A stretch of DNA of 32,000 bases from Erysipelotrichaceae bacterium (GCA_963663995.1 OY760660.1:1230001-1262000), one strand, 5' to 3'; shown: positions 4,885 through 30,052, counted from the stretch's first letter. Notes: a model not told the origin generated them from the letters alone. Translations and numbers: made by a program.

Positions 4885-6855
4885 CTAAGTCGCCTTCAAT
4901 TCTAAAATTACATCTCTAAGTTCAGCTGCTCTTTCAAAGTCTAGAACACGAGCAGCTTCTTTCATTTCTCTTTCGAGTGAAATGATTAATTCTTCTCTTT
5001 CTTTCTTATCCACTTTTTGATGTTTAGAAAGATATTTCTTAGCCATTGCTTGTGTTTCTTTTCCACGGATAACATCGTGAATTTCTTTGCGAATGGTTGT
5101 TGGGGTAATCCCATGTTCACTGTTATAAGCTTGTTGTATTTCACGACGACGTTCAGTTTCACTCATCGCTTTTTCCATAGAATTCGTGATCCGATCAGCA
5201 TAGAGAATAACTTGTCCATTTGAGTTACGGGCAGCGCGACCAATCGTTTGAATTAAACTTCTCTCTGATCTTAAGAAACCTTCTTTATCGGCGTCTAAAA
5301 TACAGACCAAAGATACTTCTGGTAAATCTAAACCTTCTCTAAGTAAGTTGATTCCTACTAATACATCATATTTACCTTTACGTAAATCATGGAGAATTTC
5401 AATTCGTTCTAGGGTATGTGTCTCATGGTGTAACCATGCTACTTTTATATCTAGGCGTTTTAAATAAGCTGTTAATTCTTCAGCCATTTTAACGGTTAAG
5501 GTTGTGATTAGAACACGCTCATCTCTTTCCTTGCGAATATTGATTTCATTAATGATGTCATCAATTTGTCCATGTGAAGGACGAACGGATAAAACTGGAT
5601 CTATTAAGCCTGTTGGACGAATGATTTGTTGAACCACTTCATGGTTAACTTTATCTAATTCATAATCACCTGGGGTTGCAGAAACATATATAACTTGATT
5701 AACCACCGTTTCAAATTCTTCAAAACGCATCGGTCTGTTCTCTAGTGCTGAAGGAAGTCTAAAACCATATTCAACTAAGGTTGTTTTACGAGCTCGATCA
5801 CCGTTATACATCCCTCTCACTTGTGGTACTGAAACGTGTGATTCATCAATGATGAATAAAAAATCATCTGGGAAGTAATCAAAAAGATTGTAAGGTCTTT
5901 GACCACTTTTTCTACCATCAATGTGCATTGAATAGTTTTCAATCCCAGAGCACATCCCAAATTCCCGAAGTGCTTCAAGGTCATAACGCGTCCGTTGTTC
6001 TAAGCGTTGTGCTTCTAATAATTTATTTTCTGCGTTTAATTCTTTTAAGCGATCTTCTAGTTCATGTTCAATCTTATTACAGGCAATAGCCATTTGTTCT
6101 TTCGAACGAGAGTATTCATTGGCAGGGAAAATATTATAGACCGAATAGGCATGTAAAATTTGACCACTCACACGATCAACTTCTGTGATTCTTTCTATCT
6201 CATCATCATACATTTCAATTCTCAAATTAAATTGATCTGTATAGCCTAATGAGATTTCAATAACATCACCAGTGACTCTAAATGTACCCCGTTTCATTTC
6301 AATATCATTACGACCATATTGACGTTCAACGAGTTTCATCAGTAATTCTTTGCGATCAATGATTTCACCTTGTCGTATGGTAAAGAATAATTCACGGTAA
6401 AGTTCAGGATCAGATGATGCATAAATACAGGCGACAGAAGCAACAATAATCGTATCTCGTCGTTCTAAGACAGCGTTTAAACTTGCCATTCTTAACATAT
6501 CTAATTCTTCATTAATCATCGAAGTTTTTTCGATATAGGTATCACTTTTAGGAAGATAAGCTTCGGGTTGATAATAATCAAAATTCGAGACAAAATATTC
6601 CACCCGATTGTTTGGAAAAAGTTCTTTGAACTCACTATAGAGTTGTCCCGCTAATGTTTTATTATGCACAAAAACAAGCGTTGGTCGATTCATTTGAGCA
6701 ATCACATGAGAAACCGTAAAGGTTTTACCAGTCCCGGTTGCACCTAAAAGAACTTGATGTCTCTTTTTAGCTTTTAACCCTTCAACCAATTCTTCAATGG
6801 CAGCTGGTTGATCCCCCATAGGTACATAAGGTGATACCAGTTCAAATTTATCCAT
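4885..6855 (-). CDS. uvrB: Excinuclease ABC subunit B (UvrB)
   Basis: 656 aa. Walker A GATGTGKT, helicase motifs and a C-terminal UVR domain (ERAAELRD) are colinear with UvrB. Confidence 0.98.
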
Positions 6856-13516: not shown

Positions 13517-15355
13517 TTATGCACAATTTCCTTCAGCATACTCACATCGTGCTTTCGCATCGACTTCTCGATTTTCTTTATCGACTAAAATAACAGATCC
13601 ATTTTGATATCGAGAATCAAAGTAGATCGCATTCACAAAGATTTCTGTTGCGTTATACAAGTAAGGTGTTGGTAGATAGCCTGCTTCATAGATTGTATAG
13701 AATCCTTGTGCACTTAGATAATTATCAACATGTTTTTCAATAGATTTTAAAATAATTCTTGCTTCTGATATGAAGTGCTTTTTCAGTTGCTCAATATCTT
13801 TATCATAAGCACTTAAATCAATCTTATGATTGGCTTTTTGTTTACGATAATAGTCGATGGCAGCACAGGTAATTTGGATGCTTTCATTCATCACTGCAGG
13901 ATTTGCCATAAATAGTGCTTCACTATAAGACACAACATGAACAATTGCAGGACTGTTTTTAATGTGAGGTTCAATATCATCCATTAACATACTTACCATG
14001 GCTAGTTGCACTTTAGCTAAGTCTTCATCTGGTGAAAAGAAATCTAAACCCGCACGCGGTTGAAGAATCACTTTAAAGTTTTTATCTTCTAGTGGTTTTA
14101 TCAATTCTAATATGGCTCGTGCTTTGGCAATATCAGTGATGCCCCAAGTATAGCGCGGAGTATTCAACATCACTTGTAAGATAAAATCTTTTATTCCATG
14201 TTTCTTTGCTAAACGAGCAGCCAAAACAGCCGATAGAATATAGGTCACATCATCGCTTCCTCTAAAAGCAAAGTGGTGTGGTGTATTAGGTTCATATGGT
14301 TTATGGGTGCTTGCGATAAAATCTAAAGCTTTTTCACTTTGTATGAGGTTTGTCAGTAGATCATTAGGACCTCTTCCATCTAATTGATTAAACCACCACA
14401 ATGACATGGCATGCCATGCAATGTTAAGACTTCTTTCATGGATATGAGCTAAATCATCGACATGATTTGTACCTGAATATGTTCGCACTAAAAGAGGTCG
14501 ACTAGCCTCATATATATCGTCATATTCGAATTCATTTTGAATCGGTACACCACCACCATTCGCTAGATTTTCCCAATTTTCATTGAAATGAGATTGAGTT
14601 AATTGCGAAGAACCAATGGAAAGAATATCTAAGTGTTTTGTCTTAGCTAATGTTTTACACCAATCTTTGAATGCTTTTAAAGCTTCTTCACGATTTTGAT
14701 GATAAGGACCAACGTGTAAGCGCGTTAAAGGTAGATCTGATGACTCTTGATGATATTTTAATCTAAGAGTTAATCGATCATGCTTTGTACCATATTCTGG
14801 ATAGTTGGTATTTTTCTTTACGCTAAAGTGTTCTTTATCAAAATCTTGCATAAACGCTTTAGCACAATTCATCAAAGCATGATCATACTTTGATCCTTTG
14901 ATAAGTGATTCTGGTATTTCATCGTCTTCTAAATCTAAAGCTATAAGAACTTCTGCCATTTCTTCTGATCCAACAAAGGTCATCACTTTATCCTTAAAGA
15001 CTTCTTTTATTTTCTGACAGGATTTTGGTAAGCCGGCAAAGTAGATCTTTTTAAGATGACCACCTTCGCTTTCAAAAATATAGTTCTTTTCGCATATTTC
15101 AAAAACAGACTTCACAGTATTTAAAGCATCTTCTTCATCTAAACGATAGGATAAACCTAAATGACTTATATGATGATCCAATAACCAATTAGCGAGTTCT
15201 TCTTTATTTTCGATTTCACCTATATGGTTTGTTTTTGAGATTAGTTCATCGGCTAGAAAGACAATTTGATCACAGGCATTTAACTGACTCTTTATCGCAT
15301 TGATCCCTAAGGTATGTGCATCATGAGTCGGTTTTAAAAGTCCATAGCGTCTCAT
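13517..15355 (-). CDS. Cobalamin-binding-domain protein (N-terminal GlmS/MutS-like B12 domain fused to ~470-aa unknown domain)
   Basis: 612 aa. LLKPTHDAHTLGINAI carries DxHxxG at residues 12-17, placed as in the glutamate mutase S subunit. Later ISHLGLSY and IYFAG segments sit at the SxL/GG positions. There is no CxxxCxxC, so it is not a radical SAM protein. Confidence 0.65.
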   Translation of the reverse strand: MRRYGLLKPTHDAHTLGINAIKSQLNACDQIVFLADELISKTNHIGEIENKEELANWLLDHHISHLGLSYRLDEEDALNTVKSVFEICEKNYIFESEGGHLKKIYFAGLPKSCQKIKEVFKDKVMTFVGSEEMAEVLIALDLEDDEIPESLIKGSKYDHALMNCAKAFMQDFDKEHFSVKKNTNYPEYGTKHDRLTLRLKYHQESSDLPLTRLHVGPYHQNREEALKAFKDWCKTLAKTKHLDILSIGSSQLTQSHFNENWENLANGGGVPIQNEFEYDDIYEASRPLLVRTYSGTNHVDDLAHIHERSLNIAWHAMSLWWFNQLDGRGPNDLLTNLIQSEKALDFIASTHKPYEPNTPHHFAFRGSDDVTYILSAVLAARLAKKHGIKDFILQVMLNTPRYTWGITDIAKARAILELIKPLEDKNFKVILQPRAGLDFFSPDEDLAKVQLAMVSMLMDDIEPHIKNSPAIVHVVSYSEALFMANPAVMNESIQITCAAIDYYRKQKANHKIDLSAYDKDIEQLKKHFISEARIILKSIEKHVDNYLSAQGFYTIYEAGYLPTPYLYNATEIFVNAIYFDSRYQNGSVILVDKENREVDAKARCEYAEGNCA

Positions 15356-21100: not shown

Positions 21101-22102
21101 AATATAAAACTCCTTAATTATTTCTATTATAGAAGTCATTTGTAACAAAACCATAACAATTTTACTTATGTTTCAAGTTTTAGTGCTTACAAAACCAAAT
21201 CTTTCAATTTTTTATACTAATAAAACATTGTATTTTAAGCATACATTAAATAAATTATCATAAAATGTTAATCCCTTATCACTAGGTTCAGATTCATCTC
21301 TATTTGCAAATATGTGAGGCTAGGAAGTTGACACCAAATAAACCATCAAACCGATTTTAATAAAGCCTGCTCATATCTTGATATCGAAGAGAATATAAGC
21401 AGCTTAATACTGACGACTATTATGTCTAATAGTTAATCACCTCACGTTATTTGTTGGAAGTAGTTCGTTTTTTTAATTCTGTAACTTTTCGATATATATT
21501 TAATTCTCAAATTATAAAGCTAGCTAACTCAGGTGGATGGTATAAAATTGGACAAAAGCGAGAAATATAAAATATATTTAAAACAATAAATTGGTTGATT
21601 TTTAGAACACTATAAAAAAATCATAGCACATAGCTGATCTCACGAAGGACCATCTATCTTTATTAAGGTCATGTTTAAACAATATCTAACCATCAAATTT
21701 TTATTTTACTCAACGCTTATCCTTATTGATTGAACATATAATCATGTGAATCAAAAATTAAAGTTTTGAAATATCATAAAAACTTTGTAGGTGATTTTTA
21801 GACTAGTTTACTATTACAAATTAATTAAGCGTAAAAATAAGGTTTACTTAAATACCAATTGTATTGGAATATAAACCTATAAAAGTATCCCCTCACGCCT
21901 ATTAGTTTACACGCTAAACCTTAGTAGTCTGTGATGGCAAATGCTTGAATAAATAAAAAAAATACTTATACATGGTGAGGAGTGTTATTACTCACAAAAA
22001 TTAAAATCACCCCTAAAGCAATCCCTACATCAGTTAGAGCGGAATTAAACTTTATATTATCTATGGTTAGGTTAAAGGAAACATAAAATGAATCAGTATC
22101 TT

Positions 22103-22933
22103 TTATAATTCAATAATATGTCCCGTATGATTTAGTTGAAATTTAAGATGATAATAGTCCTTCATTTTATCCATTGCCTTATCACCTGTACAATGAGATG
22201 CAGCTAGTAATGCGAGTTCTTCTTGATCTAAATGTTGAATTGTTTTTTGTATGCGTTCATCACTTGCTTTATTTAAATGTGTTCCACCAATAATCGCTCG
22301 TATAGGTAATCGGGTGTGTGTCTTAATATGCTCAACGATATTAACAATTCCTATATGAGAGCAGCCAACTAACAAAATTAATCCGTTATCACTTACGATA
22401 CCTAAAACTATCTCATCGTGAAATTTATCATTTACAAACTGATTGTTTTCTTTTAAATAAAAACGTGGTTCTATCTCTTCAAAATCGTTTGTTTTACTAA
22501 AGTGATGAAAAACCATAATCTTTTCATCTATTTGGTAATCTTCATTTTCAATTTTGACGCAATCAATTCCATTTAATCTGCAAAATTCTTCATCAAACTC
22601 AACTCCATTAGCATGATATTCATCATTTTCTTTTTTGTACTTTTGATCGAAAAATTCAGAACCTACAACAACTTGCTTTACTTTGAAGTTATCCACTAGC
22701 TTTCTAAACCCACCGGCATGGTCATAATGCCCATGTGAAATAAGACACACATCAAGATCACTTAAATCAATGCCTAGCATTTGAGCATTCTTGATAAAAT
22801 CACCACTCAAACCTGTATCAAAAAGTATTTTCTTGCCATATGCGTTTATATACATTGATATGCCATGTTCATAAAATAAATCAATATTTGGATGTGGATG
22901 ATTTTCAATTAATGTTGTTATCTTGATACTCAT
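22103..22933 (-). CDS. MBL-fold metallo-hydrolase, COG1237 type
   Basis: Start refined to MSIKITTLIENH (ATG 22933). HGHYDHAGG (HxHxDH) motif. Confidence 0.85.
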   Translation of the reverse strand: MSIKITTLIENHPHPNIDLFYEHGISMYINAYGKKILFDTGLSGDFIKNAQMLGIDLSDLDVCLISHGHYDHAGGFRKLVDNFKVKQVVVGSEFFDQKYKKENDEYHANGVEFDEEFCRLNGIDCVKIENEDYQIDEKIMVFHHFSKTNDFEEIEPRFYLKENNQFVNDKFHDEIVLGIVSDNGLILLVGCSHIGIVNIVEHIKTHTRLPIRAIIGGTHLNKASDERIQKTIQHLDQEELALLAASHCTGDKAMDKMKDYYHLKFQLNHTGHIIEL

Positions 22934-23194
22934 GTCATTTTCCGTTCTAGTTCTTAGAAACTTGTTTCCTAAAATCATTATTTTAAATTACCATCTGCTA
23001 TTCATTTGCTTGTCCAACAAGAATTATCCTAATGTAACTTATTTAAGCCATCTTATTCAAAATACTGATTCCAATTATTTTACAACATCTATCATTCATC
23101 AAAGTCATGGCCCACAATGAGACTACAATTGATGACATTGAAATAGGCAATGTTTATAGTCTTTTAAAACAAATTACTCGACTAAAAGACTTCT

Positions 23195-24070
23195 TTAGAC
23201 CAGGGAATCTTTATTGAATATCTCCATTGTTTGATTAAAAACATCGGTTACTGCTTTTTTTGCTTCACAATCTACATCAACGATTGTTAAGGCGTTGTTA
23301 ATTGCCTTAATAGCTTTTGTATCATATGGAATTTTACCAACAAATGGTAGATGATTTTTTTTACAATAATCTTGGATTTTTTCTGTATAATCTAAATTTA
23401 CATCATATTTATTTACGCATATACAAATTTTTGTTTGAAATTTTTGTGCCGTGTGAATAATTCGTTCCATATCACTAATCCCTGACAAAGAAGGTTCTGT
23501 GACAATTAGAACCATATCAACTCCGCTTAATGAGGCAATAACTGGACAACCAATACCTGGTGATCCATCGATGATTGATATATCTACATCTTCTGCATTG
23601 TTCTTCATTTGTTTTTTTACATCTGTAACTAACATACCCGAATTACCACTACCCATTTTTAATTGAGCCGTTGAAAATGTACTATGATTTTTAAATAACT
23701 TAATTTCACCATTAATCGATGGTCGCATTGTTATGGCGTTGCTTGGGCAAACTAATTCACAAACAGCACACCCTTCACATGCATTCTCATCAATGTGATA
23801 TTGATTATTTACATATATCGCATCAAATCGACACGCTTGTTTGCAAAGACCACATTGCGCACATCGTTCTGAATCTATTTCAGCTTTGGGTAAGCCATAG
23901 TAATCTGTTTTTACTACTTTTGCATTTTGACTCAAGACTAAATGAAGATTTGGTGCATCCACATCGCAATCTGCATATGCTTTAGCATCTAAAATTTTTA
24001 TAAAAGCACTACTAACGGTTGTCTTCCCCGTTCCACCTTTACCACTAAGGACGAGAAGCTGTCGCATCAT
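23195..24070 (-). CDS. MinD/Mrp-type P-loop ATPase with inserted 2x[4Fe-4S] ferredoxin domain (COG1149-like), copy B
   Basis: GKGGTGKT; CAQCGLCKQACRFDAI and CEGCAVCELVCPSNAI (CxxCxxCxxxC x2). AAGGAGG RBS. The start may be the second ATG (24067). Confidence 0.88.
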   Translation of the reverse strand: MMRQLLVLSGKGGTGKTTVSSAFIKILDAKAYADCDVDAPNLHLVLSQNAKVVKTDYYGLPKAEIDSERCAQCGLCKQACRFDAIYVNNQYHIDENACEGCAVCELVCPSNAITMRPSINGEIKLFKNHSTFSTAQLKMGSGNSGMLVTDVKKQMKNNAEDVDISIIDGSPGIGCPVIASLSGVDMVLIVTEPSLSGISDMERIIHTAQKFQTKICICVNKYDVNLDYTEKIQDYCKKNHLPFVGKIPYDTKAIKAINNALTIVDVDCEAKKAVTDVFNQTMEIFNKDSLV

Positions 24071-24944
24071 TTACCTCCTTAATAACAACATTGAGTAATG
24101 AAGTGAATAGTTCTTTAAACTTTTCATCTTCTCTCACTGATATGAGCGCATTTGAATTTAAATGGCCTAATGTTGTATCAAATGGAATCCTCCCTAAAAT
24201 ATCAATTTTATTCTCAATACAGTATTTCTCGGATGGATTATCCTTATTTACATATTTATTTAAAATTACTCCATGCGGTTTCTTAAATACTTTCACTAGT
24301 TCAGTCACCATATTCAGATTATGTGATCCAAAAATACTTGGCTCAGCTACTAATATACAATAATCAACATCCTTAATGCTTTCCATAACAACACACGAAC
24401 TACCAGGAGGACAATCAATAAAAGTTATTTCATTATTATCTTGTATGCCTTCAATTAGTTTTTTTATTATTGGCACTCCAGATTCTTCACCTGTGTTTAA
24501 AATTCCACTCTTAACAAATACATTGTCTGCGTAACCTTTTTGAACTTCCCCAATTTTCTTATCTTTTTCACTTATTGCTTTTTCAGGGCAAATTAAAGAA
24601 CACCCACCACATGAATGACAAACATCTTCAAAAACATGTAGTTTAGGTGAAATATAAGCTAAGGCATTAAAACGACAAAAATCGACACACTTTCGACAAC
24701 CGTTGCATAAATCAGGATTCACTACAGGAATCTTCACTTTAACATCTTCGATTTCAATGTTCGATGGTTTAAAGAAAAGATGCCCATTGGGTTCTTCTAC
24801 ATCACAATCAATATAATTTGATTTAAGTGACGCTGCTGCTAAATTAACAGATACAAGGGTTTTACCAGTACCACCCTTACCACTTAATACAGCAATTTTT
24901 AATGAATTAGTGGCCATCGGTATGGAAACCTGCGTGAATTTCAT
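24045..24944 (-). CDS. MinD/Mrp-type P-loop ATPase with inserted 2x[4Fe-4S] ferredoxin domain, copy A
   Basis: GKGGTGKT; CNGCRKCVDFCRFNAL and CHSCGGCSLICPEKAI. A start at 24917 (MATNSLKIAVLSGKGG) is more likely and would cut the overlap with the upstream gene from 38 to 11 nt. Confidence 0.88.
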   Translation of the reverse strand: MKFTQVSIPMATNSLKIAVLSGKGGTGKTLVSVNLAAASLKSNYIDCDVEEPNGHLFFKPSNIEIEDVKVKIPVVNPDLCNGCRKCVDFCRFNALAYISPKLHVFEDVCHSCGGCSLICPEKAISEKDKKIGEVQKGYADNVFVKSGILNTGEESGVPIIKKLIEGIQDNNEITFIDCPPGSSCVVMESIKDVDYCILVAEPSIFGSHNLNMVTELVKVFKKPHGVILNKYVNKDNPSEKYCIENKIDILGRIPFDTTLGHLNSNALISVREDEKFKELFTSLLNVVIKEVNDATASRP

Positions 24945-25272
24945 TTAAAGGTTTTAAATGTCCTTCTTTAAAAGAATTAATGTTTTCCATAATAGTAGAA
25001 CTATTTGTTTTAAAAATTTGTATATGGGCTGCACTTAATACTTTGGCTGCATTTTCACCACATTGTGGCGTTAATAATGCATCAACTTGAGCATCTACGA
25101 TAATTTGGGCTGCCTTAATACCTGCCCCACCTTGTGCACTCATAGCGTGATTATCAATATAATCACTTTCTTGTGTGTCTGTATCGTAAATTAGGTAAAA
25201 AAGTGTTCTTGCAAATGTAGTGCTAATGTTGCTTTCTAAATTCTGATCTGTAACTGGTAACGCTATTTTCAT
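24907..25272 (-). CDS. NifB/NifX-family (dinitrogenase FeMo-cofactor-binding fold) protein
   Basis: 121 aa. MKIALPV..., GGAGIKAAQIIVDAQVDALLTPQCGENAAKVLSAAHIQIF matches the family pattern. ATGA overlap with the DUF134 gene. Confidence 0.82.
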   Translation of the reverse strand: MKIALPVTDQNLESNISTTFARTLFYLIYDTDTQESDYIDNHAMSAQGGAGIKAAQIIVDAQVDALLTPQCGENAAKVLSAAHIQIFKTNSSTIMENINSFKEGHLKPLNEIHAGFHTDGH

Positions 25273-25661
25273 TTATGATTTCCTCTACGATTTCTTCTCC
25301 CTTGTCCTAGATTGTTTTGACAACGGCTTCGATGGCAATTTCCACAAGCTTTTAGACGTTCGTTTTCGTCATAAAGTTGGTAGTCTCCACCTTCGATTCT
25401 TAAATTAGTTCCATTAATTAATGACTCAGCAATCTTTTGTCTTGCACTTTTATAGATAGCTTGCACGGTAGCTCTAGCTACTTGCATTTTATCAGCACAC
25501 TCTTCTTGTATAAGCTCTTCAAAATCAATTAATCGAATACATTCGTATTCTTCTAGACTCATGATAATTGTTTTAGGTTGTGGATCTACTTGATATAAGG
25601 GACCATAATCTAATCGTTCAGGCATACAGCAGACTCTACGCATTTTTCTAGGTCTTGGCAT
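25269..25661 (-). CDS. DUF134 (UPF0251) predicted DNA-binding protein
   Basis: The MPRPRKMRRVCCMPE N-terminus is the family hallmark. Sigma-70 region-4-like HTH (ECADKMQVARATVQAIYKSARQKIAE). Cys/Arg-rich tail CGNCHRSRC. Confidence 0.82.
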   Translation of the reverse strand: MPRPRKMRRVCCMPERLDYGPLYQVDPQPKTIIMSLEEYECIRLIDFEELIQEECADKMQVARATVQAIYKSARQKIAESLINGTNLRIEGGDYQLYDENERLKACGNCHRSRCQNNLGQGRRNRRGNHK

Positions 25662-25695
25662 TCTTTTTTTGTAAAGTAAAAGGGATTTCTCCCTA

Positions 25696-25965
25696 TTACT
25701 TTAAATCCTTTATAGAATCTAATTCTTGATTAATACGATTAAGTTCTCGTTGTAGAAGTTCTTTTTCTTGGAGAAGCGTTGTCTGACTAAAATTGTTTTT
25801 GTTTATAAATTTTCGTTCGTTATTGTTTCTCATTCTACCCCCTCTACCATAACCACCATAAAAACCAGATGAATTTTGTTGAGTATCAGTTGTTCTACAA
25901 TAACCTAACCGTCTGCCAGTCATTGCACCTTGTCCTTGTGGACCTGTTTTATCTTGTCTTGGCAT
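25696..25965 (-). CDS. DUF5320-family small protein
   Basis: Start refined to MPRQDKTGPQGQGAMTGRRLGYC (ATG 25965, AGGAGG 7 nt upstream). Gly/Arg-rich middle and C-terminal coiled coil (LLQEKELLQRELNRINQELDSIK). Confidence 0.8.
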   Translation of the reverse strand: MPRQDKTGPQGQGAMTGRRLGYCRTTDTQQNSSGFYGGYGRGGRMRNNNERKFINKNNFSQTTLLQEKELLQRELNRINQELDSIKDLK

Positions 25966-25986
25966 ATAATACCTCCTAATAGTTTT

Positions 25987-26037
25987 TGACATATGTCATT
26001 TACATATGTATTATACATCTTTTTTGGCATATGACAA
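25987..26037 (-). promoter_or_regulatory. Sigma-A-type promoter with three CATATG-centred palindromes (putative operators)
   Basis: Minus strand: TTGTCA (26037..26032), 16 nt, TATAAT (26015..26010). Palindromes: tgacatatgtca (25987..25998, perfect 12-mer), tacatatgta (26001..26010), tggcatatgaca (26025..26036). Confidence 0.55.
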
Positions 26038-26043
26038 ATATAT

Positions 26044-27670: not shown

Positions 27671-28738
27671 TTAACTTAATGATTTTTCATCGATAATTTC
27701 AATATCAATTATTTCTTTATATGACTCAGGATCACTTAATCTAAGTTCCATAAAACTTTTCTTTAATTTACTACAACTTGGTTTGAAAGTTGCATAAGTT
27801 AAGCCACCTGAGACAAGTCCTCCAACAATTGGAACAACTTTTGATACACCTTTAGCAAAGATTGCTTTAGTCATATTTGCCCCTAACTTAGTAGCGATAC
27901 TTTTCACTATTGGATAATAGGCAGTTTTAGTTAACGCTTTAGCAGCAAGAGATTTCGCGACTTTTGCGGTTGCTAATTCTGCAATAGTTGCTACCCCTTT
28001 ATTTGCCCCTTGTACTCCAAACATGACTCCCATAAATATCATAAGTTCATTTAATGTATCATCATTGATATCTGATTCATCCAATTGTAGTTCATCAAAT
28101 CCATATAAGTATGCCAATTTTTGTAGAACTCGAACAACATGTCCAAAGTATTGAGCAATATCGGCAGGAATTGTAGCTGCCATGGTTAACCCACCTGGAA
28201 ATCCAGCTGCGAATGAAATTGCAGAAACTTTGTTTGTCTCAAAATTGATAATTTGATCAGCTATTTCGTTAATTTTTTTTCTTTCAATTCCTGCATATGC
28301 TGGATTCTTTTCAATTGCTAAAATAACTTGTTCATTTGGATAATATTTAATTAATTCTTTTTTAAGAAATTGATCTCTCTCGACCTTCATTCCAGGAATT
28401 TTTATGACTTGCTTAATAATTGTTTCAGGTTCTATTTCATACTGAGACCAGTCTGTTTCTTTTATTTTTGTTGAGACAACATCATAAGCTTCGACACTTT
28501 TCTCCCCAACAAATTTTGAACCATCAACAATTGCTTTGCCCGCCACTTTTCCTGTGCTTACTGCTACTTGTCCAACAACTGCTGCAGTTTTCTCGATATT
28601 CTCTTTTGTGATTCCCACACTGACAGCTGCTGCTTCAACTTTTTTTGCAGCTTCGCCTACACTTGTTGCTGCTTTGTTAATCTCTTCCACTGCACTATTA
28701 AACTTTTCTAAGACGTTTATTTTCTTTTTTGTTGCCAT
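27671..28738 (-). CDS. EcsC-family protein with N-terminal Ala/Val/Lys-rich extension
   Basis: FAAGFPGGLTMAATIPADIAQYFGHVVRVLQKLAYLYGF parallels the B. subtilis EcsC core (GGxxGxGGL...IPA...RVxQxxAxxYGF), recalled from memory. AGGGGG RBS. Confidence 0.7.
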   Translation of the reverse strand: MATKKKINVLEKFNSAVEEINKAATSVGEAAKKVEAAAVSVGITKENIEKTAAVVGQVAVSTGKVAGKAIVDGSKFVGEKSVEAYDVVSTKIKETDWSQYEIEPETIIKQVIKIPGMKVERDQFLKKELIKYYPNEQVILAIEKNPAYAGIERKKINEIADQIINFETNKVSAISFAAGFPGGLTMAATIPADIAQYFGHVVRVLQKLAYLYGFDELQLDESDINDDTLNELMIFMGVMFGVQGANKGVATIAELATAKVAKSLAAKALTKTAYYPIVKSIATKLGANMTKAIFAKGVSKVVPIVGGLVSGGLTYATFKPSCSKLKKSFMELRLSDPESYKEIIDIEIIDEKSLS

Positions 28739-28833: not shown

Positions 28834-30052
28834 CCTCGATTGTAAAATGAACTCGTCCACCCGTTAGAAAAAGAAAAGCACCATTCATAAGAATCCTAGT
28901 ATCATTAAGTTGCTAAACACAATGAGAAAGGTCATATGAACGATGCAACACAATGATATAACGGCTAGGTCTAAAGGACAACATTTAAGTTTGTCTGAAC
29001 GTATCGAAATTCAAACACAGAAGCGATTAGGCTATTCAAATCGGCGGATCGCTAAGAATCTTTATCGAAGTCACTCAACCATTAACGATGAAATTAAACG
29101 CGGTACAGCGATACAAAAGAAGATTGTGAATGGTTATACCTATTATTCTGAGAACTATTACGCAGAGACAGGTCAAATCGTTTATGAACGACATCGCTTA
29201 AACAGTCGACCACAACCTAAGCTAGTTAAGGTACAAGCCTTCATCGATTACGCTACACAAAAGATTAGTGTTGATAAGTGGTCACCTGATATCGTTGTAG
29301 GGCGAGCTTTAAAAGAAGGTTAATTTGATCAATCTGAAACAGTCTGTGCTAAGACCTTATACAATTATATCGATAGAGATTTCATCAAGGATTTGAATAA
29401 CTTGAATCTATGGTTGAAACTAAGACGAAAGACAAAGTCTAAGAAAGCACCTAAACATCGAAGAGTATTGGGTCAATCAATTGATCATAGACCCCAAGAA
29501 ATCAATGACAGAAACACCTTTGGACATTGGGAGATTGATACTGTCATCGGAAAGAAGAAAAAAGATGAACCTGTTCTACTTACCATGACAGAAAGATTAA
29601 CACGCTATCAAATCATTCTTAAAGTCAGAGGCAAACACGAAGCTGCGATTAATGAAGGACTTAAACAATTAAACCTAGATCATCCAAACTTTCCAAAACT
29701 CTTTAAGTCCATCACCAGTGATAATGGCTCTGAGTTTGCAGGATTAACTGAACTGATACAGGACTTAAGTGATGTCTACTTCGCTCATCCCTATTCATCT
29801 TGGGAAAGAGGAACGAATGAAAGACACAATGGACTGATTAGACGTTCCATTCCTAAAGGCAAGTCACTTAAAGCCGTTCCGGAAGAAATGATAAAACAAG
29901 TGGCTCATTCCATGAACCACTTGCCTCGTAAGATTCTTAACTACCAAACACCTACTGAATCTATTCTCTTCCACTTCAAACAAATTCAAACAACTTAATG
30001 ATTCTTGTTTTCTTTATTTCAAAAAGTGGACGACTTGATATTGCAATTTAGG
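28834..30052 (+). mobile_element. IS30-family insertion sequence (1219 bp)
   Basis: Terminal inverted repeats cctcgattgtaaaatgaactcgtccac (28834..28860) and gtggacgacttgatattgcaatttagg (30026..30052), about 20/27 matching with perfect outer cct and inner tcgtccac. Encloses an IS30-type transposase frame. Confidence 0.88.
28943..29998 (+). pseudogene. IS30-family DDE transposase interrupted by one in-frame TAA (29321..29323)
   Basis: The two track ORFs (28943..29323 and 29393..29998) are in the same frame. Sequence after the stop reads on as FDQSETVCAKTLYNYIDRDF... N-terminal HTH; DDE region HWEIDTV / SDNGSEF / ERGTNERHNGLIRR. Confidence 0.85.

Follow-up and report, generated by a model that had tools for sequence, protein, structure and literature searches.

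A reduced ORP-type operon with a candidate DUF134 autorepressor and a conserved operator pair in an Erysipelotrichaceae bacterium

We analysed a stretch of 32,000 nucleotides (nt) from an Erysipelotrichaceae bacterium (GCA_963663995.1, OY760660.1:1230001-1262000), referred to below as the window, and focus on an operon in it that encodes a DUF5320 protein, a DUF134 protein, a NifX-like protein, two paralogous ATPases with ferredoxin motifs (A and B) and a metallo-beta-lactamase (MBL)-fold hydrolase. Judged from sequence relationships, this locus is a reduced Bacillota variant of a described but functionally unresolved system, the orange protein (ORP) system of Desulfovibrio. We classify the operon in this way because the NifX-like protein is homologous to the ORP of D. 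gigas (PDB entry 2WFB), because orthologous clusters in other species contain the protein MrpORP, and because the ATPases have the architecture described for Orp3 and Orp4. In addition, the promoter of the operon is flanked by a pair of palindromes that is conserved across species, and the DUF134 protein is likely to be the autorepressor that acts on them.

Our overall interpretation, in which we place moderate confidence, is that a reduced ORP-type cluster under a dedicated DUF134 repressor carries out ATP-driven handling of metal-sulfur clusters. It draws on direct observations of protein families, motifs, synteny, operator statistics and a helix-turn-helix (HTH) fold. In the following sections, we describe the operon and its conservation, then the operator pair and its candidate repressor, and then the proteins that would handle the clusters, taking up the competing explanations where the evidence bears on them.

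Gene content and conservation of the operon

The operon consists of the following features (positions are those of the window; lengths of proteins in amino acids, aa; ORF, open reading frame).

22103..25992, minus strand: six co-directional ORFs, as follows
25696..25965 (25696..25992 in the ORF list), minus strand: DUF5320 gene, 89 aa, PF17253
25269..25661, minus strand: DUF134 gene, putative autorepressor, 130 aa, PF02001
24907..25272, minus strand: gene of the NifX/ORP-like single-domain protein, 121 aa, PF02579 (Nitro_FeMo-Co)
24045..24944 (probable start 24917), minus strand: ATPase A gene, CbiA/MinD-type P-loop domain with two Fer4 motifs
23195..24070, minus strand: ATPase B gene, paralogue of A with the same architecture
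22103..22933 (to 22978 in the ORF list; likely start 22933), minus strand: MBL-fold metallo-hydrolase gene, Lactamase_B
25972..25977, minus strand: ribosome-binding site AGGAGG, 6 nt 5' of the ATG at 25965; the cross-species consensus has GGAGG there
25681..25694, minus strand: small hairpin AGGGA/TCCCT followed by a T-rich run, a terminator-like site within the 34-nt spacer between the DUF5320 and DUF134 genes

Pfam profiles place the DUF5320 protein in PF17253 (68.3 bits against a cut-off of 27, 1.4e-18), the DUF134 protein in PF02001 (72.1 bits against 27, 6e-20) and the NifX-like protein in PF02579 (67.4 bits against 26.3, 1.4e-18), and match the MBL gene product to Lactamase_B (51.7 bits, 1.3e-13). 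In both ATPases they find a CbiA/MinD-type P-loop domain that is split by two Fer4 motifs. These are the families that a reading of the window made earlier from the sequence alone (the sequence-only reading) had proposed for the six proteins. In NCBIfam, none of the six passes the cut-off of a curated family.

The sequence-only reading had also described co-directional genes chained by overlaps behind one strong promoter, with the MBL gene following after a gap of 260 nt. The genes lie where it placed them, and the promoter agrees with the consensus at 11 of 12 positions. Three overlaps can be read from the coordinates, namely ATGA at 25269..25272, 11-38 nt at 24907..24944 and 26 nt at 24045..24070, but the chain does not reach the first gene, DUF5320, which lies 34 nt away from DUF134. 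There is indeed a gap before the MBL gene, of 261 nt when this gene begins at 22933 but 216 nt when it begins at 22978. Note that the ATG at 25992, where the ORF list begins the DUF5320 gene, lies in the middle of a palindrome; the gene actually starts at 25965, with AGGAGG upstream.

To survey the neighbourhood, one genome per species was scanned with DUF134 as the anchor, which yielded at least 555 loci, and the 80 closest loci were kept. These come mostly from Bacillota, with one each from Atribacterota, Sphaerochaeta and Synergistaceae and none from Desulfovibrio. Profiles built from the window proteins were run over all ORFs of the collected loci, and genes were counted in the 60 loci whose flanks were long enough. 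The order that recurs is DUF5320, DUF134, NifX-like, ATPase A and ATPase B, followed, where present, by the MBL gene, by an Mrp-like gene or a gene for an Mrp-NifX fusion of about 400 aa, and by a second NifX-like gene. This order recurs in Bacillota, Atribacterota, Synergistota and Sphaerochaeta; for example, the same arrangement surrounds the DUF134 homologues of Alkalibaculum and Syntrophomonas. The earlier expectation that the neighbourhood recurs in other anaerobes is thus confirmed for Bacillota and extended to the other three groups, while the Thermotogae and archaea that it also named lay beyond the reach of the scan.

The NifX-like gene is the most frequent partner (37 of the 60 loci), followed by the Mrp-like gene (30), DUF5320 (28), the two ferredoxin-ATPases together (26) and the MBL gene (10). 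A core of DUF134, NifX-like protein and both ATPases is present in 26/60 loci, 17 of which also have DUF5320. In one locus that was reached independently, via ATPase B, the gene order was identical. The gene order is far from chance, recurring as it does in dozens of species. In four species, an IscU/NifU_N scaffold is encoded within the cluster. The MBL gene overlaps the ATPase B or DUF134 gene by 4 nt, an arrangement of translational coupling, in 12 other species, and because of this coupling we assign it to the system despite the gap that precedes it in the window.

Other genes also occur near the collected clusters. DUF1847 proteins, members of an uncharacterised family, are encoded in or beside the cluster in some species (L018:2256-3574 and L058:14684-15277). 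In a common metagenomic lineage (L002-L004:7508-8351), a NifX-like gene and then DUF134 stand behind an operator pair spaced 30 bp, and the cluster adjoins convergent genes for a CdhC-like protein, a BcrAD/BadFG-type activator, two HGD-D dehydratase subunits and an ArsA/CbiA ATPase.

The operator pair and the DUF134 protein

The promoter region of the operon contains four elements.

26032..26037, minus strand: -35 hexamer TTGTCA, which aligns with TTGACA inside operator site 1 of 48 other species
26010..26015, minus strand: -10 hexamer TATAAT, at the identical position in the cross-species consensus
26026..26035, no strand assigned: operator site 1, GTCATATGCC on the gene strand, one base off GRCATATGYC; overlaps the -35 hexamer
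25987..25998, no strand assigned: operator site 2, the perfect 12-bp palindrome TGACATATGTCA, just past the -10 hexamer in the early transcribed region

The two hexamers form the promoter TTGTCA-16-TATAAT (26037..26010), and the cores of the two sites are 38 bp apart. The 10-bp palindrome GRCATATGYC occurs in 117 exact copies in the 80 loci (1.29 Mb), against 4.1 +/- 1.7 in shuffled sequences; across 86 sources, including the window, there are 126 exact copies, most of them within 600 nt upstream of the start of a DUF134 ORF. In the interval from -800 to +150 around the DUF134 start, 66 of 75 species have at least one site and 48 have a pair, and the spacing between paired palindromes peaks sharply at 38 and 39 bp. 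The aligned promoters give the consensus GTTATTGACATATGyC-N13-TATAAT-N11-GrCATATGTCAATAAC-~8 nt-GGAGG-ATG, in which palindrome 1 contains the -35 hexamer TTGACA and palindrome 2 lies just downstream of the -10 hexamer. Since the outer half-site reads TTGACAT, each palindrome contains a -35-like hexamer. To judge from these sequences, paired palindromes flanking a near-consensus promoter are what one would expect if a repressor controls a strong promoter.

The DUF134 protein begins with an N-terminal MPRPRK arm, continues with Cys11 and Cys12 and an HTH that resembles sigma factor region 4, and ends in a Cys-rich tail. The columns that are invariant in the family, including MPRPRK and an EYExIRLxD core, are present. 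The HTH is seen as a sub-threshold match to Sigma70_r4 at residues 38-77 (Pfam) and in an AlphaFold2 model (predicted local distance difference test score, pLDDT, 81), of which residues ~36-83 superpose on sigma region 4 and on the N-terminal domain of DeoR at 0.6-0.8 A (Foldseek). Among solved structures, none matches the whole protein. The cysteines are conserved to 92% (Cys11), 77% (Cys12), 94% (Cys55), 70% (Cys106) and 94% (Cys109), and the tail has three or four of them in 62 of 79 relatives. The HTH and Cys-containing tail that had been predicted from the sequence thus find support in model, profile and alignment, and the proposal that DUF134 is the regulator of the operon is strengthened by the conserved operator pair at its own promoter. 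The conserved cysteines probably bind a metal or Fe-S (iron-sulfur) cluster that is sensed.

The public gene call of this protein (P0001, 118 aa) begins at Met13 and so drops the MPRPRK arm and Cys11/Cys12 (window 25626-25661); the 130-aa reading from 25661 fits the family.

The DUF134 unit shares its three DNA-binding helices with sigma-70 region 4, with the N-domain of B. subtilis DeoR and with proteins of the GerE/LuxR type. Sigma region 4 reads the -35 consensus, which is contained in the half-site TTGACAT of the DUF134 operons. Unlike sigma factors, DUF134 consists of a region-4-like unit without region 2 (19 bits against a cut-off of 42.9 for the sigma-factor family TIGR02937) and has its own MPRPRK arm and Cys-rich tail. 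If it recognises the palindromes, it would therefore be expected to do so as a dimer that acts as a repressor, not as a subunit of RNA polymerase.

Additional pairs of GRCATATGYC precede other operons in some of the collected loci. At L013:9437-9484 a pair in divergent arrangement precedes an operon for an HdrD-like CCG/Fer4 protein, a CoA-disulfide reductase-rhodanese and a TraB-family protein; at L054:9621-9668 the operon encodes DUF169 and radical SAM proteins; at L005:5230-5273 it encodes small unannotated proteins; and at L073:4373-4419 and 5097-5143 the operons contain further NifX-like and ATPase genes. These pairs suggest a small sulfur/Fe-S regulon. In an Erysipelotrichaceae metagenome-assembled genome (L035:9529-9672), two divergent DUF134 operons share one intergenic region that contains four palindromes, that is, two pairs.

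The palindromes could instead be bound by a global regulator encoded elsewhere, for instance one of iron, redox or CRP/FNR type, in which case DUF134 would be an anti-sigma-like or nucleic-acid-binding accessory. CRP/FNR-type sites follow the scheme TTGAC-N4-GTCAA, which TTGACATATGTCAA superficially fits, and both the HdrD-like/CoA-disulfide reductase-rhodanese and the DUF169/radical SAM operons have sites of their own; in addition, the assignment of the sites to DUF134 is made from sequence. However, the central ATAT is invariant in the aligned promoters, not free as in that scheme. The pair is also retained in loci where nothing of the cluster is left but DUF134, or DUF134 and DUF5320, and DUF134 is the sole protein with a DNA-binding fold that is constantly encoded beside the sites, all of which come from loci chosen via DUF134, with the site at the DUF134 promoter in 66 of the 75 species. 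We therefore consider a regulator other than DUF134 unlikely. In the literature, a search that left out most subscription journals and regulon databases found only unrelated primers and CRP papers for the palindrome, and only incidental mentions for the function of DUF134.

Putative cluster carriers and ferredoxin-ATPases

In D. vulgaris, the ORP complex comprises Orp3, Orp4, Orp8 (the orange protein, a Nitro_FeMo-Co protein), Orp5 and Orp9, which is MrpORP; Orp3 and Orp4 are paralogues with two [4Fe-4S] ferredoxin motifs each (PMC6345978). His-tagged Orp3 brings down Orp4 and Orp8, the purified proteins show absorption of the Fe-S type, and in vitro Orp3-Orp4-Orp8 receive clusters from MrpORP (PMC6345978). 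The orp genes have been termed anaerobe-specific (PMC3897727). Their expression depends on sigma-54 together with OrpR, an activator that senses redox state, and what the proteins do is still described as unclear (PMC8359166). For the operon described here, we assume complex formation and Fe-S loading by analogy with these homologues.

The window resembles the Desulfovibrio locus in combining two paralogous MinD-type ATPases, each with two [4Fe-4S] motifs, with a single-domain Nitro_FeMo-Co protein, and both types of cluster are found in anaerobes and have a dedicated regulator on site. In contrast to the Desulfovibrio locus, the window lacks MrpORP, OrpR, a sigma-54 promoter and any small Fe-S protein of the Orp5 type. 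What it has is a single sigma-A promoter between two palindromes, along with DUF134, DUF5320 and the MBL hydrolase. In the orthologous cluster of Syntrophomonas (L005), the product of the gene that follows both ATPases exceeds the NCBIfam equivalog cut-off for MrpORP (468.5 bits against 450), and in that of Alkalibaculum (L001) the MrpORP-type protein is split into genes for an Mrp part and a NifX part. Together with the IscU/NifU_N scaffolds mentioned above, the MrpORP equivalog supports the metal-cluster theme of the sequence-only reading. In contrast, its statement that no function of these families had been demonstrated outside nif systems is wrong, given the Mo-Cu cluster of D. gigas ORP, the Orp3-Orp4-Orp8 complex and the thioferrate of IssA. 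The operon is accordingly no orphan, since its core matches that of the ORP complex of Desulfovibrio.

The NifX-like protein matches three solved structures, namely 1RDU (TM1290, 6e-16), 1EO1 (MTH1175, 1.4e-15) and 2WFB (D. gigas ORP, 5e-9 over residues 2-106), and its Pfam family agrees with the FeMo-cofactor-binding fold pattern that had been noted earlier. The conserved motifs of the group are FGR (FAR in the window), GGAG, AAQ, cGeNA and a C-terminal IHxGFHGHGG; the window protein has the GGAG loop, a C-terminal His motif of the form IHAGFH..GH and a His-rich end of 9 residues. NifX, NafY and the C-terminal domain of NifB share PF02579 with it, and with PF02579 the idea of carrying a metal-sulfur cluster noncovalently. 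However, the nif carriers partner NifEN/NifH, whereas proteins of the window type partner MinD-type ATPases, and the cluster is widespread in genomes that were selected regardless of diazotrophy. No nitrogenase genes (nifHDK, nifEN or nifB) were found among the window ORFs of at least 100 aa, in agreement with the earlier reading as regards nifHDK and nifEN, or in the recurrent neighbourhood.

A second comparison concerns IssA of Pyrococcus furiosus, which stores thioferrate and whose clade is reported to include MTH1175, a protein that lacks the IssA tail (PMC5524996). This tail is cationic and Gly-rich, has a single Cys and is proposed to wrap the anionic thioferrate (PMC5524996). IssA and the window protein have the same globular NifX-type domain, MTH1175 being the second-best solved relative of the latter, and the IssA tail and DUF5320 have the same chemical character (cationic, Gly-rich, with a single Cys). 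The two systems differ in that IssA has a long cationic Gly/aromatic-rich tail in the same chain, whereas in the window the Gly/Arg-rich segment is carried by a separate coiled-coil protein; also, IssA is not reported to work with ferredoxin-ATPases. The chemistry of the tail, and the fact that MTH1175 lacks it, lead to the idea that DUF5320 might supply the tail in trans.

The DUF5320 protein of the window has the N-terminal motif MPRQDKTGPQGQGAMTGRRLGYC, a Gly/Arg-rich middle part and a C-terminal coiled-coil helix. In the family alignment, the N-terminus MPRRDGTGPMGxGxMTGRGxGxC is conserved, the C-terminal helix is amphipathic, G and R make up 19% and 11% of residues, the median pI is 9.9 and one Cys is conserved, all of which bears out the earlier description of a Gly/Arg-rich peptide with one conserved Cys and a coiled coil. 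A word-indexed search retrieved only 2 homologous proteins and an exhaustive search 538 representatives, essentially all of them stand-alone proteins of 77-118 aa; the few long matches either contain the N-terminal motif in tandem duplicate or have a wrongly called start. The relatives P0239, P0249 and P0323 have the motif MPRxDGTGP..GxGxC twice in tandem. These tandem copies suggest that the N-terminal motif may be an independent functional unit. A scaffold or adaptor role for DUF5320 is pure conjecture. The possibility that DUF5320 is the precursor of a ribosomally synthesised and post-translationally modified peptide was dropped: the conserved parts are the N-terminus and the C-terminal helix, and no modifying enzyme recurs. 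Literature searches for DUF5320 and for the COG numbers gave incidental mentions only.

The hairpin in the spacer between the DUF5320 and DUF134 genes is a weak copy, with a stem of 5 bp, of an element found in most other species, often in the form CAGGGG-loop-CCCCTG followed by TTACTT, with -12 to -41 kcal/mol (L006, L009, L037, L077 and L085 are examples). This stem-loop may set the ratio of DUF5320 to the downstream proteins; it may be an internal attenuator or an mRNA-stabilising element. The MBL protein has the metal motif HGHYDH and is similar over its full length to structural-genomics MBL entries of unknown function, namely 2P4Z (E 3.9e-33 over residues 2-255) and TM1679 (3H3E, 1.4e-30).

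The two ATPases are 31% identical to each other. In other species, all 31 genes at the first position are closer to A and all 31 at the second position are closer to B, so that by sequence A and B are two distinct orthogroups; B has at least 8000 relatives at E below 1e-10, many of them at ~65% identity across families. As had been noted from the sequence, both have a deviant Walker A (SGKGGTGKT) and two CxxCxxCxxxC motifs. Invariant in all 32 pairs are the Walker A with its signature lysine, a switch I DCDV(E/D)xPN that includes an invariant Cys, the eight ferredoxin cysteines, a switch II D-x-x-P-G-x-x-C (Cys184 in A, Cys175 in B) and one further Cys (242 in A, 236 in B). The switch II Cys lies 7 residues past the Walker B Asp, which we take to be the spacing of Asp125 and Cys132 in the A. 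vinelandii Fe protein; as a lead, this spacing would put the Cys at a dimer interface. The SIMIBI ATPases (Mrp/NBP35/ApbC, CooC, nitrogenase Fe protein and BchL) likewise have a deviant Walker A (GKGGxGKT), a MinD/NifH-like fold and a switch II Cys. A and B differ from them by the two-cluster ferredoxin domain inserted after switch I, which is absent from all solved relatives; no solved structure contains this insertion or covers the whole ATPase.

These features also fit an ATP-dependent low-potential reductase with the logic of NifH/BchL or of an archerase, which would deliver electrons to another enzyme or to stored iron-sulfide, the NifX-like protein being a substrate carrier or adaptor. 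Each ATPase has a two-cluster ferredoxin domain, the invariant switch II Cys has the Fe-protein-like spacing just mentioned, and the core of the AlphaFold2 model of ATPase B matches nitrogenase Fe protein, CooC1 and BchL about as well as MinD and FlhG (Foldseek). Furthermore, IssA-bound thioferrate needs a reductant to give [4Fe-4S] clusters (PMC5524996). Yet no conserved catalytic partner enzyme is encoded beside the ATPases, and the Cys correspondence is one of sequence spacing only, and the ATPase B model has no usable insert geometry (pLDDT is below 50 at residues 37-61 and 117-143). A reductase role in this strict sense is improbable in our estimation; note that it overlaps with ATP-driven cluster handling instead of excluding it.

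Somewhat less probable still is the handling or detoxification of Mo/W-Cu thiometallates, in which the NifX/ORP-like protein would carry a Mo-Cu sulfide cluster and the ATPases would assemble or dismantle it. We take the genes Dde_3197-3199 of D. alaskensis G20 to lie in the orp region, although the papers do not confirm this. Such a role would agree with the homologue from D. gigas, ORP (2WFB), which was reported with the Mo-Cu sulfide cluster [S2MoS2CuS2MoS2] (PMC6345978), and with the finding that on copper surfaces Dde_3197-3199 change by 6-7 log2 units, Dde_3198 carrying the annotation of a dinitrogenase FeMo-cofactor protein (PMC10533852). However, the neighbourhood has no recurring molybdate/tungstate transporter or molybdopterin gene, the partners that do recur are Fe-S proteins (Mrp/MrpORP, IscU, ferredoxin and DUF1847), and the window protein is nearer to MTH1175 of the IssA clade than to ORP. 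Among the classic markers of iron status are feoA and flavodoxin. It also speaks against a thiometallate role that Dde_3197-3199 move with both in the G20 data (PMC10533852).

The least probable explanation is a cell-division or positioning system, in which MinD-like ATPases would place the septum or a polar structure with the clusters as redox sensors only: the ATPase core is structurally closest to MinD and FlhG, and such a role was the first proposed for Desulfovibrio ORP, where loss of orp expression in D. vulgaris leads to morphological defects and MrpORP is polar (PMC6345978, PMC8359166), but the MinD equivalogs of NCBIfam are not reached (minD_bact 52.1 bits against 212.9; minD_arch 52.4 against 201.75), none of the 86 loci has a partner of the minC/minE type, no C-terminal amphipathic membrane helix is recognisable by eye in the sequences, the proteins that constantly accompany the ATPases are cluster carriers and scaffolds (NifX-like, Mrp and IscU), and the Foldseek scores of nitrogenase Fe protein, CooC1 and BchL nearly equal that of MinD.

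Proposed mechanism, window context and significance

For the reduced ORP-type cluster under DUF134 control, we propose the following mechanism. A DUF134 dimer would bind each of the two GRCATATGYC palindromes; because one palindrome lies over the -35 hexamer and the other past the -10 hexamer, their occupancy would shut the near-consensus sigma-A promoter, and DUF134 would control its own operon. The signal would be a metal or Fe-S cluster bound by Cys 11, 12, 55, 106 and 109. ATPases A and B would form an ATP-sandwich heterodimer of the MinD/NifH/Mrp class, each subunit having two [4Fe-4S] clusters in its inserted ferredoxin domain, and this heterodimer would dock the NifX/ORP-like carrier. 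ATP binding and hydrolysis, possibly with electron transfer through the ferredoxin domains, would then load, convert or release a cluster. The cargo would be an anionic Fe-S-type or heterometal-sulfide cluster that is held noncovalently by the GGAG loop and the C-terminal His motif of the carrier, and DUF5320 may bind the same anionic species in trans, like the cationic tail of IssA with thioferrate. The MBL hydrolase would be a member of the same regulon. Since the window contains neither the cluster donor Mrp/MrpORP nor the second NifX-like gene of the fuller versions, clusters would have to be supplied from elsewhere in the genome.

A more general proposal, which we regard as possible but rather doubtful, is that DUF134 is a widespread family of metal- or Fe-S-sensing repressors in anaerobes that work by mimicry of sigma region 4, that its regulon is an ATP-driven route which mobilises or builds iron-sulfide-type clusters and differs from ISC, SUF and NIF, and that DUF5320 is an IssA tail acting in trans. 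In such mimicry, the dimeric sigma-4-like HTH would read the inverted TTGACAT/ATGTCAA and compete directly with sigma-A. The regulon would comprise DUF5320, the NifX/IssA-like carrier, the ferredoxin-ATPase heterodimer, Mrp/IscU and the MBL hydrolase.

Several points weigh against the proposed mechanism. The 32-kb window contains no MrpORP; Mrp-type proteins match it by tblastn only in the P-loop region of ATPase A, so that there is no Mrp/MrpORP pseudogene in it either. A second NifX-like gene is likewise absent, also as a pseudogene. No OrpR or other enhancer-binding protein is encoded among the window ORFs, and matches to the sigma-54 promoter TGGCAC-N5-TTGC occur at chance level, none of them upstream of the operon, whose promoter is of the sigma-70 type. 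TM1290 and MTH1175 are closer relatives of the NifX-like protein than D. gigas ORP is, the homology of the ATPases to Orp3 and Orp4 is derived from architecture, published descriptions and MrpORP synteny, and the model of ATPase B has a modest pLDDT of 67. Among the best 150 relatives of DUF5320, there is no DUF5320-NifX fusion. Within the window alone, the operator motif has 2 matches against 2.3 expected, which is chance level, and the significance of the operator derives only from position and conservation across species. The sole phenotype reported for Desulfovibrio is altered cell morphology. Finally, we infer that DUF134 binds the palindromes, which another regulator could recognise, and that it senses a signal; what ATP does, what the cargo is and how DUF5320 and the MBL protein contribute are likewise inferred.

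The remainder of the window encodes UvrB, a tail-specific protease, a PcsB-like hydrolase, FtsEX, a two-component system, a HAD phosphatase and a broken IS30-type transposase. The latter (28943-29998) is split by a stop codon into an HTH_38 ORF (28943..29323) and an rve ORF (29393..29998) and is probably a decayed insertion sequence. The ORFs at 13517-15355 (612 aa) and 27671-28738 (355 aa) have no Pfam match at E <= 1e-5. Between the MBL and response-regulator genes lie ~950 nt of AT-rich sequence (21155-22102, GC content 0.275) with no ORF of at least 40 aa, no Rfam match and no operator motif; an Rfam scan of the whole window also gave no match.

Few conserved proteins of unknown function are as widespread in anaerobes as NifX-like proteins and ferredoxin-bearing ATPases of the MinD type. 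The ORP of Desulfovibrio is an Fe-S-loaded complex whose role is open, and the Bacillota clusters are now tied to it. Among the new elements, the conserved pair of operators and its candidate repressor are the most useful, since they make regulation and the inducing signal directly testable. A search for pairs of GRCATATGYC can map the regulon in any genome, the inducing signal can be found with a simple reporter, and DUF134 and DUF5320 are open to biochemical testing. A branch of metal-sulfur cluster trafficking that is so far unexplored could thereby become accessible in strict anaerobes, gut and syntrophic bacteria among them.

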